Shown here: in pieces, positions 31,019 through 47,998 of the stretch
Layout of the letters: each line of letters starts with the position of its first letter
Numbering within the stretch: the first letter of the stretch is position 1
From: Patellaria atrata CBS 101060
Lineage: Eukaryota
NCBI GenBank assembly: GCA_010093705.1
Contig: MU006089.1
Location: 2,715,561 to 2,779,560, forward strand
Direction: 5' to 3'
DNA: 64,000 bases
Made by a program: the position numbers and the translations under genes
Notes under the pieces: generated by a model
The model's input: the letters and a program-made list of their open reading frames with translations, nothing else
Told to the model about the DNA's origin: nothing
Database searches by the model: none

Positions 31019-32734
31019 ATGGCCTCTCGACTTGAAGCAGAGCTCCATCTTGTTTCCCCAGAGATCCCATTCCGCGCATCGTCGAACTATGCTCATCACA
31101 CATGGGCGCGCACCTTCCACTCCTACCCTGAGCTCTACCTCCGTCCGCAGACCCTACTCGAGATTCAGAAGATAGTGACCCTAGCCAAACGATGTAGACG
31201 TCGCATCGTAGTCGTTGGATCCGGGCATTCACCGAGTGACCTGACCTGTACCTCATCATGGCTGGTAAACCTGGACGATTTCGCCGAAGTACTCGGCGCG
31301 GAGCCGGAGAAGAAGAGGATTACGGTTCAAGGCGGGATCAGACTCCGTGATCTGAACCTCGCGGCCAAAGAGTATGGGCTTACAATGAGAAATTTGGGCA
31401 GTATTGATGAGCAGAGCATTGTTGGAGCGATATCTACGGCTACGCATGGAAGTTCGTTAGAGCACGGATTGATGTCCCAGTCGGTTAAGAGCTTGCGGAT
31501 TGTACTCGCGAATGGTCAGGTCGTGTCCTGTTCGGAGTCGCAGAATACAGATCTATTCCGCGCGGCGCTGGTGAGTCTTGGTGCCTTGGGCATTATCGTC
31601 GAGGTCGAGTTTGAGTTGATTACACACACGAACATCGAATGGACACAGACACTATTCCCTCTGGATGATGTTTTGACAGACTGGGAAAGTACTCTTTGGA
31701 GATCTGCTGAATTTACTCGTGTTTGGTGGCTTCCATACATGAAGCGTGCGATTGTTTGGCGAGCAGTCAGGACTGACAAGCCACCACGTCCACCAATGTC
31801 CAACTGGTACGGTGGAAGCATCGGCTATCATACGTATCACATTCTCCTTTGGATGTCAAATTATGTACCTCGCATCCTTCCAGCCATTGAGTGGTTTGTG
31901 TTCGGAATGCAATATGGTTTCAAAGATTATACTTCCACAACTGGAGTTGAAGAAATGAGGACGGGACTACTCATGAATTGTCTCTACTCGCAATTCGTGA
32001 ATGAATGGGCTCTCCCACTCCACAAAGGACCAGAAACCATCACCCGATTATCCGCATGGCTAAACGGCGAGCCCGAGTCCAAACATCGAATTCCCTTTAG
32101 CGCCCGTGGACTATACGTCCATTGTCCCGTCGAAGTCCGCGTCTCCGACACCACCACAGCCCCCACCCGAGCATTCCTCGACAACACAGTAGAAGATGGA
32201 CCAACCCTGTATCTCAACGCGACTTTATACCGTCCCTACCTTCAAGACCCCCCCTGCAGAGAGCGCTACTACGAAGCATTCGAATGGCTCATGAAAGAGA
32301 TGGGTGCAAAACCCCATTGGGCCAAGAACTTCTCAACCGTGACGCAACCCGAGATCCACGCCATGTTCGGCACCAATCTGACCTCCTACCTTCGAGTCCG
32401 CAACGAAGTCGATCCCGACGGCCAGTTCGTCGGTCCTTGGCATCGGCGGTACATACTGCCCGCGGATTCGCTCGGTGGCCTTCCTATAGAGGAGAGGGAG
32501 GTCAATAGACGGCCGGCCAAGTCTGGCGGTGTGGTGTGGTATGGTGAACAGGCACCGAGGAAGCTGTCTCCCACCTCCAGCGGGAGCGAATTGAGCTTCG
32601 ATCTCATGGCTGGCGCGGAGGCTGAGAGTACGCTGCTGAATGAGAGCGATTATGAGTACTCACATGTCGAGCACTTGACTCATGGGAGTCATAATCTCAC
32701 TTACACCGGAACGGAGGTTTTCAATAAGATGTAG
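31019..32734 (+). CDS. ALO1: D-arabinono-1,4-lactone oxidase
   Basis: HTWARTF, VGSGHSPSDL (FAD-linked His), LGSIDEQSIVGAISTATHGSS, PVEVRVSD, KPHWAKNF. Confidence 0.93.
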   Translation: MASRLEAELHLVSPEIPFRASSNYAHHTWARTFHSYPELYLRPQTLLEIQKIVTLAKRCRRRIVVVGSGHSPSDLTCTSSWLVNLDDFAEVLGAEPEKKRITVQGGIRLRDLNLAAKEYGLTMRNLGSIDEQSIVGAISTATHGSSLEHGLMSQSVKSLRIVLANGQVVSCSESQNTDLFRAALVSLGALGIIVEVEFELITHTNIEWTQTLFPLDDVLTDWESTLWRSAEFTRVWWLPYMKRAIVWRAVRTDKPPRPPMSNWYGGSIGYHTYHILLWMSNYVPRILPAIEWFVFGMQYGFKDYTSTTGVEEMRTGLLMNCLYSQFVNEWALPLHKGPETITRLSAWLNGEPESKHRIPFSARGLYVHCPVEVRVSDTTTAPTRAFLDNTVEDGPTLYLNATLYRPYLQDPPCRERYYEAFEWLMKEMGAKPHWAKNFSTVTQPEIHAMFGTNLTSYLRVRNEVDPDGQFVGPWHRRYILPADSLGGLPIEEREVNRRPAKSGGVVWYGEQAPRKLSPTSSGSELSFDLMAGAEAESTLLNESDYEYSHVEHLTHGSHNLTYTGTEVFNKM

Positions 32735-33438: not shown

Positions 33439-35324
33439 TCATCCACAAACCACACCCTCTCTCGGGATTTCAACCGCGTCCTCTCCAGGATCCTTCTCCC
33501 TGTTGATCTTTTCCTCCATTATCTTCCCTCCCGGTTCCAGCCCCGCATCCCTCGTCTCTGCATCCGCTTTCTCCAACTTCGCCTTTTCCTTCCTACTCAA
33601 AGTTAGGCTCCCCTTCTCCAGCGCCTCTTTCGGCAGAGGACGGATGTACGGCTGACAGATGAAGTACGGTCTCTTACACCGCTCCACCGCTGCAGCGGAA
33701 GACTCTGAAGCATCATCGATCTCAGTCGAGGTTGAAGTTACAAGCTCGGTAGACCCATGACTCTTAACGTCGGTTTCAGCTTTTGCGGTCCCGTCTGCGT
33801 GCTCGCGCTCATATTCCAGAAGCCCCACTTTCACAGCTTCCTCGACCATACTTAACACGTTCTCGAATGCTTCGATATCGCCGCCTTTAGAGCGGGCTAG
33901 TGCATCACGGACGTCTGTGTGTTTGGACACGAGCGAGCGCAGGAGGTGGAAGAGGTGACCTTGCATTGCAGCGAGGTTGGGAGATGTGGTTTTCTGCTGT
34001 TGCTTTTGGCCTTTGCCAGTCTTCTTGTCTTTTGGATTTTGTATGTTTTGTTCGTGGCGCTCTTTGCGCTTTTTGCGGGGTGGGCCTTCTTCCTTAGGTG
34101 TGGGGCCTCCCTGATAGGATTCTGGTATCGATGCGCTTCCATTTACGTGATTCTCGATGATTTCTTCGAGGATTTGGGGTGATTGGGCCTGCAGTTGCTC
34201 TCTTACAAGGTCCGATGGGAGAAACAAGGGCTTTCGCTGCGGAGGGTCCTTATCTAGAACATATTTATATATTATGTCCATATATCTCCTCATAACGGCG
34301 TCCATCCTGTATCCACCTTTACCATCTCTTCCACGCCAGTACTCTCGGCCACATTGCTCTGGCAAAGGTGGAGCTGCGAAAATAGAAGGATCGTAGAGGT
34401 TCCCTTCCGCACTCATGACCCCATCCGCACCTGTCTCTTCCAAGCATCGACCAATGTCTTCGTGCTGGAGTATGTTTCCATTTGCGAATATTACTGTTTC
34501 AGGAGGTAGGTTCTCGCGTAAATATCTTATCACGCTCCAATCCGCCAAACCGGTCGCATGGCCTTTCTGTTCCCGCTGCCGTCCATGCACTGTAAGAATA
34601 CTTGCTCCCGCCGATAATATCTTTTGCGCGTATTCTAATGTCTTTTCCTTTGTCTCTAATATGCGCATTTTTGCGGTAACAGGAATAGTAAGTTCGGTAT
34701 GTAACCGGTTGATTAATCGGTAAATGAGATCCTGATCTTCTTGGAGGAACGCGCCATAATGTCCTCGTTTCGCTATTCCCTGGGGACAACCTAGATTCAA
34801 ATCTACAGCATCACAATATGGCTCAACACGTCGCGCAGCGTTTAGGAGATCATCCGGGTTATTTGAACAGAACTGTACGAACAAGGGCCGGTCAAACGCA
34901 GGATTCCCATCCAGATATCTTTCCACGGTTTCACTCTTTAATTGTTCATTTGTATCTGAACCTGTTGGGGGAGGGTTCCGGTTTGCCTGGAAGTGTGATT
35001 CTCGATACTTGGTGACATCCGCAAAGAGTTTGGAGTGGAACATCGGTGTATATGCTAAAAAATTCTTGCCCTGCTCAGGGCTCATGAAGGAGCGCGTTAG
35101 TATACGCCATGCCTACGTAGAGAGTTAGTGAGAAACCAGATTGCGCTGGGAAGACCACATACGAACTCAGACTGGTCTACCATTGGCGCAAGCACAAGCT
35201 TTGGACTTCCCAAGCTCTCGTAGAAGGCACGGCCATGGAGTTTGGACGGGCGCTTCATCTGAGGGTCTGGTAAAGAAGTATGGCCATTTTGCAAGTGATC
35301 TGTAATGACAGCTTCTGAGTTCAT
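33439..35324 (-). CDS. DUS1: tRNA-dihydrouridine(16/17) synthase
   Basis: LAPMVDQSEF/AWR across intron ~35162-35114, YTPMFHS, DRPLFVQFC, VDLNLGCPQGIAKRGHYGAFL, TVHGR, ANGNI, GVMSAEG. Confidence 0.93.
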
Positions 35325-36597
35325 GGTTCCTCTTGAAAATGCTCGGAATATTTGGCGAGTTGACGAAGGCCTAGGCAAGAAGCCCGCCCGTAATGTTGAA
35401 GTGAGTTTAAGAATGATGAAGGAGAAATGGAGTTAAGTTCATAAAAGTGTCAGCACAACATTGAATAAGATAAGGTAGAGTTATGGAGCGAATTGTAGCA
35501 AGTGAAGATTCGGGATTCTGAAAATTATAATTTGACTGACTCGTGTTGAGATGACTACATTAAGGTGCTCCTAATCCCTCCCTTAAAACGGCTCTGGAAC
35601 CCTGATACCCCTTAAACGTTCAACTTCGACTTCCCCAGAATCCAAATATGGTAGACCTGGGCCAAAAAACATAGGGAGCCGGCGTCCCCTAACTTTCAAT
35701 ATTTATTGATAGCACTGCTCTCAAGAGTACCACTTAATGGTTTTTCAAGAAAGTCGCCGAATCAACCCTATATCAGCCCCCTTTCACGCTCGCGCCTTAA
35801 TAATGAATGTTAAACACCAATAGGTTCAACGGTAATTGCTGTTTATTCCCGAACTGATTTACTTATATCGAACTTTACTCTTGGTCGACTGATCTCGTGA
35901 GGATGTATTAAGGGTCCCTAGGGGCTAATGGGGAAACAGGCAAATTCGAGACAGATGGTCCGAAGGAAATGATGATGACGAGTAGTTATCCATTTCAATA
36001 AATATCCATTCCTTATCCCAGGCACTTTTGATGATGTCGTAATGCTGCTCTATTTCACCTAGCTCTACTATGGGTGTACCTATTGCTCTGCTGCGGGCTA
36101 TATTTACGGTCAGCGTCGAAGAAAACTAGTATGTTTCCTTTTCAGTCCGTAGTTGCTATACTCGTGATCCAACGGACTTACATTTCTGCTTTCGGTCAAC
36201 CTTACGGAAGGGGTGATAGATTGATAATTAGTTTTGCGTAGATCTTAGTATCGAGACTGACGCGGAGATTGGAAGCACGCTCAGCTCGGTCTATACTTTT
36301 AGAGACTACAGTAATAGTTGAGCAAGCTGTGCGCCGTGCAGAGTAAAGGCAAAACGGTGAGAGTGACGAAGGTAGAGATTTGTAGGGTCGATGCTCACGG
36401 TATCATAGTGAGTTAGAGGAAAAGGAAATTGTTCTGTGGGTTTTACTTTGGGTGCAACTTAAGAGCGCTGGGAGGACATTGACCACTAATCAGCGCCATA
36501 GATCCTAAGATAGTCAACTCTAATAGAAAGTGAAAGGGAGGTATGGAGGGGAGCATAGTCTTAATAGCAGTGCAAAAAAAAAAACTGAAAAAAAAAA

Positions 36598-36767
36598 CTG
36601 CAAAACAGTTCCCACCCCTCCGGGGAGGGCATGGTACATCTGCTGCCCTCAACTTAGGGCCCGAGATATGGGGGCTTTTTGCCCCCTCGGGGAATCGACC
36701 CCGGGGTTGTCGAGATATGCCCAGTGGTAACGACCACTGGGCTACCCCGGGAGATGGTAACTGATTG
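36598..36767 (-). ncRNA. Candidate Pol III-transcribed, tRNA-headed structured RNA or SINE-like element (unassigned class)
   Basis: GC-rich island with at least 5 stems, A-box TAGCCCAGTGG (36744-36734), B-box-like GGTCGATTCC (36700-36691), upstream TTATAA (36780-36785), downstream T10 and T11 runs (36597-36588, 36584-36574), and complementary 5'/3' ends. Confidence 0.55.
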
Positions 36768-38034
36768 CAAAACTATTGCTTATAACTCATTTGCGGAAGG
36801 AGCCATCGGGAGAGTGTTTGAGCTGTTTGTATCCATTAGGAGGTATTCACTTGGCTCTCATTATATAACTTATTCACTGACTCTTTCTTGAGATAGATGG
36901 AACATATTTCTTCGAAATGATACTTTCATATTCTCTAACCAACATTGTCAAAAATAACTCAAGAGCATACTCCGATATCTGGGTATTACAGTAATAGAAC
37001 CGATGGAACGAACAAAAAAAATAGCAGGAGTTGCGGCAATCAGTACGGTACCGCGAAACAGTTACCTTGACTCCAACTTTACAAAACGGGACCTGGTTGC
37101 TCGGCTCTCTGGATTTGAAGTCACCCTACAAAGGTATGTTCAAGCGAACAGGTTATACATCTGAACATCTCCTTTGACTGTATCAGCAAGGTCAAAGACA
37201 AAAATTTATGTTTTGGTATAGAGCCTTATACTCACATGACAATAATCTAGTACAAGAGATTCTTCTGATGGTGAACACAGTACGGTATAGTCAAGTAATT
37301 CTGTGTTAGCTGACAACTGTTCCCGCTACTGTGACTAGCGAGTAGTGGAGAAAATTTGAAGAAGGCGAGAGCGAAAAGGAGGGCCGAACGGTAGAGGAAG
37401 AGGAGCATTTATCACATGAGAGGACTGATGATAATCGCAAGCTTATTAATTACATATTCATCAGCATATTCATCTGCACGTACTTGATCCCCAACAACAC
37501 TCCGAATGACGAAGCCTGGTAGTAAATGCAATCTCATCACCCACATCATTACACCCACCGCCACCTTCAACCTATCCAAACACCTTTACCAGACAGTGAA
37601 CAGCCAAACGCGTAAATATCCGCAAAATTACCATCCAACGCCACTGCCAAACACGAAAGACCTAACACCAAATTTTCAATCCCTCACACGGGATGAACGC
37701 AGAACGAATGAGGATCTAAACGGAATCTTGAAAAAAAATAAATGCCGTCCCGACACAATATGATTAAACACCGATTAATGCTGCTGATGAAGGAGGCCGT
37801 GACAAGTCTAAGGTATCAAGTTGGCCGTAACATCTAGAAATCTAAAGAAAGATAATGAGAAACGATAACGATAGATAACGGGACGCCAAATATGGTATGT
37901 TTAATGACGCAAATGATGGATGATGATGGAGGAGATCGAATATTCATCTAATCGATGGAACCCCACCCGATAGTTAAGGTACTACAAGCCCAGTGTGTTC
38001 TTGGGATGGAAAAGGTTAGAATTTTTGAAGGGGA

Positions 38035-39422
38035 CTAAAATGTGCTCCACAACCAGTCTCTTGGTAAGCTCCCGACAAAGCTTCCAACTTTCTGATTCTC
38101 CGGTTGCACACTGCCCGGATTGGGATTTAGAAGAGGGGGTCTGACAAGCATGGTCGGCGTGGAGCTATCAGCACTACAAGCGGAGCTTTCACTGTTGCTT
38201 CGGCTGATACTTCTTTCCTGTTGCCATTTTTTATAGTCAGACCAACAATAATCGCAAGCTCTCTGTAACGTCCCTTGGGGATGGAAGGCGGCAGATTGAT
38301 TGAGTTTGACGGTATGCGAACTGTGTTGACTGCAGAAAATATGACCACATCGTCGACAATGATGACGGCGTTCCCAGAAGGAGAAAAACTTGGTGCAGGT
38401 CGCCAGGTCACAAACAGGAGTTGCCGAATCGAGCTGGTAAAAATGTTAGTGGTATTTCCTAAAAATCTTTCTTTATTCTCTTAGATATCAACGACGACTG
38501 AGATTAAATTATTGGGAAAATGATCGACAAAGGTATTTTCGCTTGGCTAGTACGGAACGCACTGAAACTAGCGGGAAAAGAGGTAAATGGAGAATGAGCC
38601 GAGAAAACATTCGTACGTGACACCCTGATGGGATGGCGCCATCTGTACCATGAACTTGAAACGCGACTCCGATTGTACAAAAACTCCATGATGCCTCGAA
38701 GAGGTTGATGCATAGAGTCAATATGCATTTCACTTCAGAGATGGAAAATCAAACAGCGCGATGAGCTCTATGCAGAAATTGAAGAAAAGTCGATTCGCCA
38801 AGACGGGAATATGAAAACAGAAGTAGAGAGAGACTGCTCTTTTCGTAATGAATTCAATTGGTACACTATACCTGAAATGCAATACACTTCAAGGGAAAGC
38901 TGACAAAGAAAGAATGAGGTCTTAACGTACCTTCCAATGTTCTCTCGTTGGTGGTCCTGTCACCGGTCCTACGACATCTGGGTTCCACTCATCGATTATA
39001 ACCCGATTTATTCCAGATATATATCCAGAGTCAGTACTAGTTCGAGATACATGTCCTCCCACGAAACCTGAACTACTCTCTCCACCGTCTATACCGTCCT
39101 GCTTGTCCTTTGGTGGCGAATTTCTAATAGGCTTCTCTGTTGGCCTTAAGACTGCCGGAACGTATAGAGGGGCCTTTGGGGGACGAATCTGTCGAGAAGG
39201 ATAGGGTAAGATGTTTGAACTACGAGGTGATGTAGGGGAGAGTCTCGTTGGTGTAGAATCCCCAGAGTGTTGAGTGGGCGCATACTGGTTGCCAGGACCA
39301 AAATATTGCTGTGGGAAAGTTGGAGGAGGAGTAATGACCCCAGGAGGATTTGCATACTCAGCTGTCATTGTGGGAAGATGTTGCTGAACTCGTCGAGTAC
39401 CAACTCTATCCTCAGACGACAA
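38035..39422 (-). CDS. FYVE zinc-finger (PI3P-binding) protein; 2 exons
   Basis: Exon 1 ends PTREHWK. After intron 38930-38434, exon 2 reads LDSATPVC...RRHHCRRCGHIFC...RACDYC...DWLWSTF*. Start may instead be ATG 39368. Confidence 0.88.
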
Positions 39423-40526
39423 TGAGGGTGTGGTAGAGGAGGTTGAGAGGTGACAGTGGTGTGGATATATCGACCAGATATCTTTTGGATCGTCCCCCAG
39501 AAAATTATATTGGGAACAGGGAGGTCTGATAACTTCGGGGAGACAAGGTTTGGGTGATCTTGACGCGGAGGGAGGGATTGGATCAGAGATGCACGATTTC
39601 TGGGGACAAGCAAACAGCGGCGGTCTTTTAGGAGTAATGATGAGAGGCTCTTAAGGAATCCAAGCGGTCTGTAATTAACACCCTTGAGCTGGTCTATACA
39701 GCTACCTCTCGCCGTCCTCCCCCGGTGCGCTCTCAAAGATATGGAATGGTCCTATGGAAATACGGCGATTGGCGCAATGTTTGGGCGCTGGGAGCAGACG
39801 CGGTGGGAGGCGATAAGGGAGGGACCAAAGACCCTTGAGTGGGTACACAAACGTCACCGTGAGAAGCACAGGAAGGCTTAAGGACAGTCCACACAACGCT
39901 CTCTCTGTGCCTTCACCGTCGCACAGGAAGTTGTATAAATAAATAATGAAAGCATGTTGAGGAGAAGACAAAAAAGAATTGAAGGTGTACGAAAAGTTCT
40001 TGGGACTTGGGTGGTGGTGGTGTCCGTTGAGGCGGCTCTACCGCTTCTGGCTTCATGGCCACCGGCCGAATCATCAATCGTCAAGGGAATTTGGCGCTAT
40101 CGGAACGGTGATCCTTGGCACTTTAGAACTAATATTCTTTTGGGGAACTGGTCTTGCTTTCCGTAGGAAAAGTAGGTGTACTCATGAAATCACCTAGTAT
40201 CTTGTTTCTACCTATACATGAAACGCGGAAGATGGTATGAGAATAATAGAAAGGATTGATCGGATACTCTGAATATTCCTAGATAAAGATCGCCAAATAC
40301 AAGTAACACAAGAGGTCAGTGTAAGGTGTTGAGAACTTGAGATCAAGGATGATGCACTCTCCCTGCTTCCTTCCCGAGTTTTGGGCATGCGACTTTGGCG
40401 TTGGACAGCGTTCATGGATATCCCAGAATATGTTCGTCGCAAAAGTGGTCTAGCGTGAACGTCTTATCTACACCCAATAAGAAATCTCAGAATTACTCAA
40501 AAGGGCCCATCCAATACGGGCCGCTT

Positions 40527-47912: not shown

Positions 47913-47998
47913 TGCCGAAACCCAGAATTGAACTAGGGATCTTCGCATTGACTCGAATGAAGTACAAGTGCGACGCGTTACCACTGCGCCATTCCGGC
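47913..47998 (-). tRNA. tRNA-Thr(UGU) with a 14-nt intron
   Basis: Cloverleaf: GCCGGAA/TTTCGGC acceptor, TCGCA-CTTGTA^A-TGCGA anticodon arm with intron CTTCATTCGAGTCA after position 37, CCTAG-TTCAATT-CTGGG T arm, and an oligo-T terminator about 22 nt downstream. Confidence 0.95.

Follow-up and report, generated by a model that had tools for sequence, protein, structure and literature searches.

Known Pol III transcripts of filamentous fungi are, in essence, the housekeeping ones: tRNAs, 5S, U6, SRP RNA and RNase P RNA. In bacteria, Y-like RNAs contain a tRNA-like domain. Animal Pol III RNAs, as described in the part of PMC7279448 used here, are roughly 90-160 nt long, belong to small paralogous families and in some cases derive from a tRNA or SINE; their A and B boxes lie about 30-40 nt apart, a TATA-like element lies near -30/-24, and transcription terminates in T runs. 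According to the same part of that source, A and B boxes are about 30-40 nt apart in type-2 Pol III units generally, with longer spacing in some genes, and the type-2 genes of plants and S. pombe have TATA at -30/-24. For fungi, a 2015 review, in the portion of it drawn on here, reports that candidates for Y RNAs or sbRNAs were still lacking (PMC4726728). Finally, tRNA-related SINE candidates of Aspergillus fumigatus, as far as the consulted part of PMC5063351 describes them, measure 140-493 bp and occur in 1-5 copies; among them, the AfuSINE2 candidates combine a tRNA-type Pol III head with a body unrelated to tRNA, and their defining feature is a target-site duplication of 4-14 bp.

Here we describe a locus at 36574-36785 of a 64-kb window (the whole stretch of DNA that was analysed, 64,000 nucleotides), whose minus strand has the complete arrangement of elements of a type-2 Pol III unit. 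The host is a filamentous ascomycete whose closest named relatives are Dothideomycetes, with protein identities of at most 67%. Our leading reading, to which we give somewhat less than an even chance, is that the locus belongs to a small gene family, with about three copies, that encodes a Pol III transcript not described before; the family would be tRNA-derived and possibly of SINE origin. The element resembles the animal Pol III RNAs in its box spacing, TATA-like element and T-run terminators, and also in its predicted size, its few paralogues and its possible descent from a tRNA or SINE. It differs from them in being fungal, and it shows no sequence or Rfam similarity to them. With the AfuSINE2 candidates it shares a putative tRNA-type head, a body unrelated to tRNA, a length in the range of 140-493 bp and a low copy number (1-5). 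The sequence features and their geometry were read directly from the DNA, and those of the putative transcription unit are as follows.

36780-36785, minus strand: TATA-like box TTATAA, roughly -30/-25 relative to the predicted start
36755-36758, minus strand: predicted Pol III start, an A at 36755 or 36758, placed from box geometry
36744-36734, minus strand: A box TAGCCCAGTGG, 0 mismatches to TRGCNNAGTGG
36701-36691, minus strand: B box GGGTCGATTCC, 1 mismatch to GGTTCGANTCC
36688-36703, minus strand: T-arm-like hairpin around the B box, 5-bp stem and 6-nt loop, pair probability 0.91
36597-36588, minus strand: T10 run, predicted Pol III terminator
36584-36574, minus strand: T11 run, predicted back-up terminator

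Box consensus and spacing criteria were taken from the part of PMC7279448 used here. The spacer between the two boxes is 32 nt, and with the start set at 36755 the A box occupies +12/+22, the B box +55/+65 and TTATAA -30/-25. A start near 36755 is predicted because the A box then falls at +12/+22, as in the published geometry; close to it lies 36760, where high identity with a second genomic copy begins. The window holds 11 plus-strand and 12 minus-strand A-box sites with at most one mismatch, and 0 and 2 such B-box sites, respectively. The 36744-36691 pair is the sole A/B pair 20-100 nt apart in the window, against an average of 0.025 such pairs in 200 mononucleotide shuffles. An initial annotation of this DNA had called a consensus A box, a B box one base off consensus and an upstream TTATAA on the minus strand. 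Both boxes were borne out, the B box within its T-arm-like hairpin, and TTATAA is indeed present, although its coordinate had to be corrected to 36780-36785.

As in a type-2 Pol III unit, T runs of terminator length lie downstream and none lies inside. The two long runs reported previously were recovered as T10 and T11, while on the minus strand no T run of at least 5 occurs within 36598-36755, the longest internal run being T4. On the plus strand, by contrast, a T5 interrupts the unit at 36676-36680. Five A or T runs of at least 10 nt are present in the whole window. The T10 and T11 runs belong to a short tandem pattern, CAG-T10 followed by CAG-T11.

We compared the element with tRNA genes and other known RNAs. 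Like tRNA genes, it has a consensus A box, a B box in a T-arm-like hairpin, tRNA-like box spacing and a T-run terminator. Unlike them, it has neither a cloverleaf nor an anticodon arm, its T loop has 6 nt rather than 7, and a 10-bp hairpin takes the D-arm position. When it was aligned to the only tRNA of the window, similarity was found mainly at the A-box and B-box regions, and the boxes and their spacing were tRNA-like. ARAGORN at default settings found no cloverleaf and returned 0 tRNA genes at the locus, and the Rfam tRNA model RF00005 gave no match there at E up to 10, in agreement with the earlier statement that the sequence is not foldable as a tRNA. A tRNA with an intron, or a pseudo-tRNA, was rejected: at thresholds of 70% and 50% ARAGORN produced mutually overlapping forced fits on both strands, namely Gly(acc), Asp(gtc) with a 90-nt intron and Ser(gct).

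The initial annotation had also seen no hallmarks of U1-U6, 5S, SRP, RNase P/MRP or snoRNAs. This held in the Rfam check, in which the covariance models of Rfam 15, those of Y and vault RNAs and of ribozymes included, at gathering thresholds matched no known family at the locus; at E up to 10 the sole match was SNORD94, whose 12.5 bits (E 4.1) fell short of its threshold of 60. A box C/D or H/ACA snoRNA behind a tRNA-like leader, a U6 RNA and a hammerhead were set aside, their hallmark motifs being absent by eye and Rfam agreeing; an LTR primer-binding site was set aside on the absence of its hallmark by eye.

The hairpins and complementary stretches of the element are the following.

36719-36742: perfect 10-bp hairpin GCCCAGTGGT/ACCACTGGGC with loop AACG (plus-strand letters), including most of the A box, pair probability 0.95
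36700-36707 with 36744-36751: 8-bp stem, exact complement
36670-36686, minus strand: 6-bp hairpin GGGGGC-AAAAA-GCCCCC, pair probability 1.00
36664-36669 with 36636-36641, minus strand: outer stem of a two-part hairpin (pair probabilities of the two-part hairpin 0.84 and 0.86)
36645-36660, minus strand: inner hairpin of the two-part hairpin, 5-bp stem; the two-part hairpin spans 36636-36669
36616-36629: hairpin with a 5-bp stem
36612-36634, minus strand: G/C-block region, forming its own hairpin or a closing stem with the 5' end (36745-36757)
36595-36611, minus strand: 3' hairpin, 7-bp stem GAACUGU/GCAGUUU with loop UUU, pair probability 0.91

The hairpins at 36719-36742, 36670-36686, 36645-36660 and 36616-36629 and the enclosing 8-bp stem lie exactly where they had been placed before. 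The minus strand folded at -94.0 kcal/mol (z -6.6, 0/200 shuffles as good), and across the calculations z ranged from -5.7 to -6.6, again with 0/200 shuffles equally stable. The plus strand reached -89.4 kcal/mol (z -5.85, 0/200 shuffles as good); the minus strand was more stable by about 6 kcal/mol, with 5 G-U pairs versus 2. That the plus strand is nearly as structured is what a palindrome at the DNA level would give, and it counts against our leading reading. The local hairpins are robust in these models, whereas the closing stem and the global fold shift with the assumed start site: with the start at 36755, a local hairpin at 36612-36634 replaces the closing stem (pair probability 0.73). 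The core of the 3' hairpin is an inverted repeat AACTG/CAGTT in the DNA, and the hairpin extends into the T10 run.

We next consider copy number, which was read from the contigs of one sample in two runs, X1 and X2, that are probably DNA, with 16 of the 32 contig pieces listed. The contig 36666-36728 had a depth of 907.6 against 313-325 in its flanks in X1, and of 1416.7 against 442-467 in X2. These depths indicate about three genomic copies sharing a 63-nt core among the pieces listed, a count that covers near-identical copies, as diverged ones are invisible to the method. The core is identical in the three copies, as is a further 30-nt block outside the boxes. The contig 36632-36695 had single-copy depth, and its neighbours on both sides are shared among copies. 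In the 64-kb window BLASTN found no second copy of the element; the other matches were 11-19 nt long and included the A box of the window's tRNA.

Another locus, the second copy, lies where a ~5-kb contig ends and shows 2 differences from 36702-36760. Beyond 36760, 17 of 30 ungapped positions match by hand count (binomial P 0.0003-0.002), a similarity based on a single 30-nt loose end. In the hand alignment of this loose end, the one paralogue flank recovered, the second copy has TAATAA where the present copy has TTATAA, so that a TATA-like hexamer is kept at the same position. The second copy is nearly identical to the present one in the interior but has diverged in the outer part of the inverted repeat (36761-36775). 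Between copies, the contigs imply differences at 36729 and 36732, which are loop positions of the 10-bp hairpin. Altogether, the differences that could be placed fall at 36631, 36662, 36665, 36729 and 36732; four of the five are unpaired, while 63% of positions are paired, a marginal loop bias (P about 0.07 by our own estimate).

These copies bear on whether the locus is a low-copy tRNA-derived SINE or its relic, in which a transcript from ~36755-36760 was copied by a LINE reverse transcriptase and the present copy is one insertion. Such an origin would explain tRNA-type A and B boxes in a head that has no tRNA fold, and it is consistent with about three dispersed copies sharing a core among the contig pieces listed. 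Also, high identity between copies begins at 36760, near the predicted start, as RNA-mediated copying predicts. The low-copy tRNA-related SINEs of another ascomycete, A. fumigatus (140-493 bp, 1-5 copies, in the part of PMC5063351 used here), are precedents and therefore leave room for a mobile origin. However, the kept upstream flank and TATA-like box of the second copy argue against a retroposed or transposed copy, since neither would be expected to carry an upstream promoter. Target-site duplications, which define the AfuSINE2 candidates in that part of PMC5063351, were not found at the present copy, the sole copy examined; and unlike those candidates, compared here by description only, the present element has an upstream flank partly kept between copies. 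The best direct repeat in the flanks, the 8-mer TGCAAAAC (36599 and 36766), was rejected as a target-site duplication, as 58/500 shuffles gave an equal one and it lies away from the homology boundary. Furthermore, the 3' end has no A-rich, microsatellite or recognisable LINE-derived tail and is a hairpin followed by T10/T11, and only about three copies were seen. We therefore consider a SINE or SINE relic unlikely, and the tRNA-derived SINE offered in the initial annotation, taken as a classical SINE, is weakened by the small number of copies sharing the core, the lack of a significant target-site duplication and a T-run 3' end that resembles neither an A-rich nor a LINE-like tail.

The element could also be a MITE or other palindromic DNA repeat in which the Pol III-like boxes are coincidental. 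Imperfectly complementary ends had been reported earlier, and indeed an alignment of the two ends as an inverted repeat has 21 matches, 4 mismatches and 2 gaps in 27 columns, a score reached by 1/500 shuffles. The complementarity is thus real, but its outer part (36759-36770) lies upstream of the predicted start and would therefore be outside the predicted RNA. Such ends, on a short repeat of about 170 bp with few copies and a plus strand predicted to be nearly as structured, are in keeping with a MITE. In the second copy, however, it is the outer inverted repeat (36761-36775) that has diverged and the interior that is near-identical, the opposite of what is expected of transposase-bound termini. 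No target duplication was found at the present copy, and coincidence would have to account for an A/B pair expected 0.025 times per window, plus a well-placed TATA-like box and terminators. A DNA repeat of this kind is very improbable.

Two minus-strand genes, one Dus-like and one FYVE, flank the element, and the 2.6 kb between them are free of genes. This position, together with A and B boxes left intact after loss of the cloverleaf and the lack of a match to any known RNA family, would also suit a decayed tRNA-derived Pol III/TFIIIC site without a stable RNA, either a relic or a chromatin element like the yeast extra-TFIIIC sites. Against this, the three copies share an identical 63-nt core and an identical 30-nt block outside the boxes, and their differences avoid stems. 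Moreover, a long body that folds strongly, contains no terminator and leads into two T runs of at least 10 suggests a selected transcript over a bare binding site. We regard such a site as improbable, less so than a DNA repeat.

If the locus is instead a Pol III RNA gene of a small family, as we tentatively favour, its A and B boxes would come from a tRNA-like ancestor that is no longer foldable as a tRNA and would be bound by TFIIIC, while TFIIIB would occupy TTATAA some 30 nt upstream. Pol III would start near 36755 on the minus strand and stop in T10, with T11 as back-up. The product would be a G+C-rich RNA of about 160 nt, folded into five or six hairpins, with a terminal U tail such as La-type proteins bind. 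We infer this transcription, the RNA ends, the fold and any function from the features above. Y RNAs and the bacterial Y-like RNAs offer a further comparison, since the present element is likewise predicted to give a small RNA of Pol III type that has a 3' U tail and may have a terminal stem; unlike them, it has no Rfam match, and its terminal stem depends on the assumed start. The conserved Ro-binding helix motifs of Y RNAs were not seen by eye in the element.

Our best guess for a role, by analogy with the rodent 4.5SI or BC1 RNAs, is that of a stable small RNP scaffold derived from a tRNA or SINE-like element. A stronger version, which we hold to be doubtful, is that filamentous fungi would here have their first family of Pol III small-RNA genes that is lineage-specific and lies outside the housekeeping set: a ~160-nt, tRNA-derived RNA of several hairpins acting as a stable RNP scaffold or decoy, kept in about three paralogues with selection on their promoters and stems, and comparable in kind to the animal vault, Y, 4.5S or BC1 RNAs. 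If true, a structured, paralogous Pol III RNA outside the housekeeping set would be a new small-RNA class in fungal biology and would show clearly how a promoter of tRNA origin can come to serve another RNA; if the locus is a SINE-like relic instead, it would be ordinary.

We also searched for relatives. Metagenomes scanned with the twin 9-mer plus B-box pattern and with a 23-mer of the core each gave 0 matches, as did viral contigs scanned with a looser hairpin plus B-box pattern. In prokaryote genomes the looser pattern gave a single match, in a Planctomycetota MAG, which was rejected as chance: it is a bacterial terminator-like hairpin between A and T runs, near which GGTCGATTCC happens to occur, and alignment revealed no wider similarity. 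Strings of 14-16 nt from the element had no match in full-text papers, and text and sequence-string searches of the literature found no further Pol III family in filamentous fungi. To our knowledge, no Pol III RNA family of such a kind is known in these fungi.

Finally, we examined a 9-mer repeat within the element, whose copies are as follows.

36711-36719: first 9-mer copy (CATATCTCG on the minus strand), inside the 63-nt core common to all three copies
36662-36670, minus strand: second 9-mer copy; positions 36662-36665 vary in other genomic copies

As the initial annotation had noted, the 9-mer CGAGATATG is repeated at 36662 and 36711, and these proved to be its only two occurrences in the 64 kb, with 0 on the other strand. 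By our own rough reckoning, the chance of any 9-mer repeat within 180 nt is about 0.06, and the repeat by itself is weak evidence. The proposal that it forms a twin protein-binding motif was not sustained, as the points at which the contigs break indicate differences from the other genomic copies within 36662-36665, inside the second 9-mer. The exact duplication of the 9-mer therefore seems specific to the present copy.

The candidate element on the minus strand (window ~36574-36785) is, judged from its sequence, a real, non-random feature that has all the parts of a type-2 Pol III unit. As the initial annotation had claimed, its minus-strand A box is a perfect consensus match and its B box deviates at one position; the two lie 32 nt apart. 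This pair was unique in the window on both strands, with 0.025 expected (200 shuffles), under a filter strict enough not to recover the window's real tRNA gene. The standard layout given for type-2 units (PMC7279448) has box A spanning roughly +12 to +22 and box B roughly +54 to +64. With a start at A 36755 on the minus strand, TTATAA would occupy -30/-25, the A box +12/+22 and the B box +55/+65. The upstream TTATAA was present, but at 36780-36785, slightly off the place the initial annotation implied. The two long T runs proposed on the minus strand were found as well, at 10 nt and 11 nt. The longest T run on the sense strand before T10 is 4, and the opposite strand carries an internal T5. 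The predicted RNA would run from ~36755 into 36597-36590, a length of ~160 nt. The plus strand at 36563-36610 reads TGC-A11-C, TG-A10-C, TGC-A4-C, so that the terminator unit, on the minus strand CAG followed by a T run, recurs in a short tandem-like pattern, which points to local terminator duplication.

Structures noted earlier in the DNA were exact on inspection: the 10-bp hairpin at 36719-36742, its 8-bp outer complement (36700-36707 with 36744-36751) and the hairpins at 36670-36686, 36645-36660 and 36616-36629. The repeated 9-mer CGAGATATG occurs at 36662 and 36711 and nowhere else in the 64-kb window. As described, the ends are imperfectly complementary, with 21 of 27 aligned columns inverted-complementary, a score reached by 1 of 500 shuffles; their outer part (36759-36770) would precede the predicted start. 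Folding energies predicted for both strands lay far below those of shuffled controls (z -6.6 minus, -5.85 plus), and six local helices had pair probabilities of 0.73-1.00.

Helices of the predicted fold
10-bp hairpin carrying the A box
T-arm-like hairpin carrying the B box
GGGGGC-A5-GCCCCC
Two-part hairpin, 36636-36669
G/C-block hairpin
3' hairpin leading into the U tail

A long closing stem was predicted only with an RNA start at or upstream of ~36758; with the start set at 36755, the 5' end would pair with the first 9-mer instead. Over the same interval the minus-strand fold is more stable by 6 kcal/mol and has 5 G-U pairs against 2 on the plus strand, a weak sign that the minus strand is the RNA sense.

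Rfam 15 and ARAGORN identified no known family at the locus, and on these null results the element is neither a tRNA nor a recognisable snRNA, 5S, SRP, RNase P/MRP, snoRNA, Y RNA, vault RNA or ribozyme. Rfam gave no match at gathering thresholds; with E up to 10, only SNORD94 appeared (12.5 bits against a 60-bit threshold), which is noise. ARAGORN likewise found no tRNA, as anticipated, and no tmRNA, and its fits at thresholds lowered to 70% or 50% were overlapping, mismatched, on both strands and not credible. By text or sequence string, our literature search found no report of an element of this kind from a filamentous fungus; according to one review, fungi had yielded no Y RNA or sbRNA candidates by 2015 (PMC4726728). 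Metagenome scans for relatives gave no match. A pattern search of prokaryote genomes for the hairpin and B box returned L001 (301-343, minus strand), a Planctomycetota MAG sequence whose 10-bp hairpin arms (GCCCAGTGGT/ACCACTGGGC) are nearly identical to the element's; with A and T runs on either side, it resembles an intrinsic terminator of bacteria, and the similarity was rejected as chance.

Copy number, which the initial annotation had singled out for checking, was estimated from two sequencing runs of one sample (X1 and X2), probably genomic DNA. Contig breaks fall within the element, and depths and break points were used (16 of 32 contig pieces examined).

Contig depth across the element
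Flanks: X1 313-325, X2 442-467; single copy
36666-36728: X1 907.6, X2 1416.7; ~3 copies
36699-36731: X1 633.3; ~2 copies, the window's copy and one other
36632-36661 (32-nt piece, last 2 letters misfit): X1 650; two other copies
36632-36695: X1 331.8; window's copy only

Depth pointed to ~3 genomic copies; the window itself holds no second one. From the break points we infer that these copies are identical over a 63-nt core and a 30-nt block, diverged copies being invisible to the method. Differences from the window's copy would lie at 36630/36631 and within 36662-36665, with 36729 differing in one copy and 36732 in another. Four of the five placeable differences fall at unpaired positions, and two of these four occupy the opposite ends of the 4-nt loop in the 10-bp hairpin; overall, 63% of positions are paired. 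The second 9-mer varies among copies, which weakens the earlier idea of a twin protein-binding motif. A second locus, at the start of a ~5-kb contig in each run, differs from 36702-36760 at 2 positions before diverging. In its next 30 letters, counted by hand, 17 of 30 ungapped positions still match the window (binomial P 0.0003 under regional and 0.002 under local composition), and its minus strand has TAATAA where the window has TTATAA.

Most likely, if tentatively, the element belongs to a family of tRNA-derived small RNA genes specific to its lineage, with ~3 predicted copies. This reading is favoured by the conserved core, the mainly loop-located differences, the TATA-like box kept upstream of the second copy and the double terminator. 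The main rival, a SINE-like retroposon, is rather doubtful: the copies abruptly become more alike close to the predicted start, as a classical SINE would allow, and candidates described in Aspergillus fumigatus (PMC5063351) indicate that low-copy tRNA-related SINEs exist as a category in ascomycetes, but the window's copy has neither a target-site duplication (the best direct repeat, an 8-mer, was matched by 58 of 500 shuffles) nor an A-rich or LINE-like tail, and only ~3 copies are visible. A relic or TFIIIC site that yields no stable RNA is a slimmer prospect, and a MITE-like DNA repeat is unlikely, the least probable of these, since divergence between copies falls in the outer inverted repeat.

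The element sits in nuclear DNA of a filamentous ascomycete, inside a 2.6-kb interval without long ORFs.

Neighbouring genes
31019-32734, plus strand, D-arabinono-1,4-lactone oxidase
33439 to ~35432, minus strand, dihydrouridine synthase (Pfam Dus, E 8.9e-58)
~38035-39650, minus strand, FYVE-finger protein

The oxidase is the sole member of its 90%-identity cluster, and among the 120 matches listed (1464 at E 1e-50 or better; 7999 candidates scored) its best named relatives reach at most 67% identity and are nearly all Dothideomycetes; the source lineage therefore seems phylogenetically isolated. The Dus reading frame resumes in a second ORF (35097-35432), suggesting a short intron near 35100.

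Elsewhere in the window, a tRNA gene interrupted by a 14-nt intron lies at 47913-47998 on the minus strand (Rfam, 53.1 bits). ARAGORN missed it in a first run and, with introns allowed, called it Glu(TTC) and placed the intron at position 34, whereas the canonical 37/38 intron position gives the anticodon TGT (Thr).
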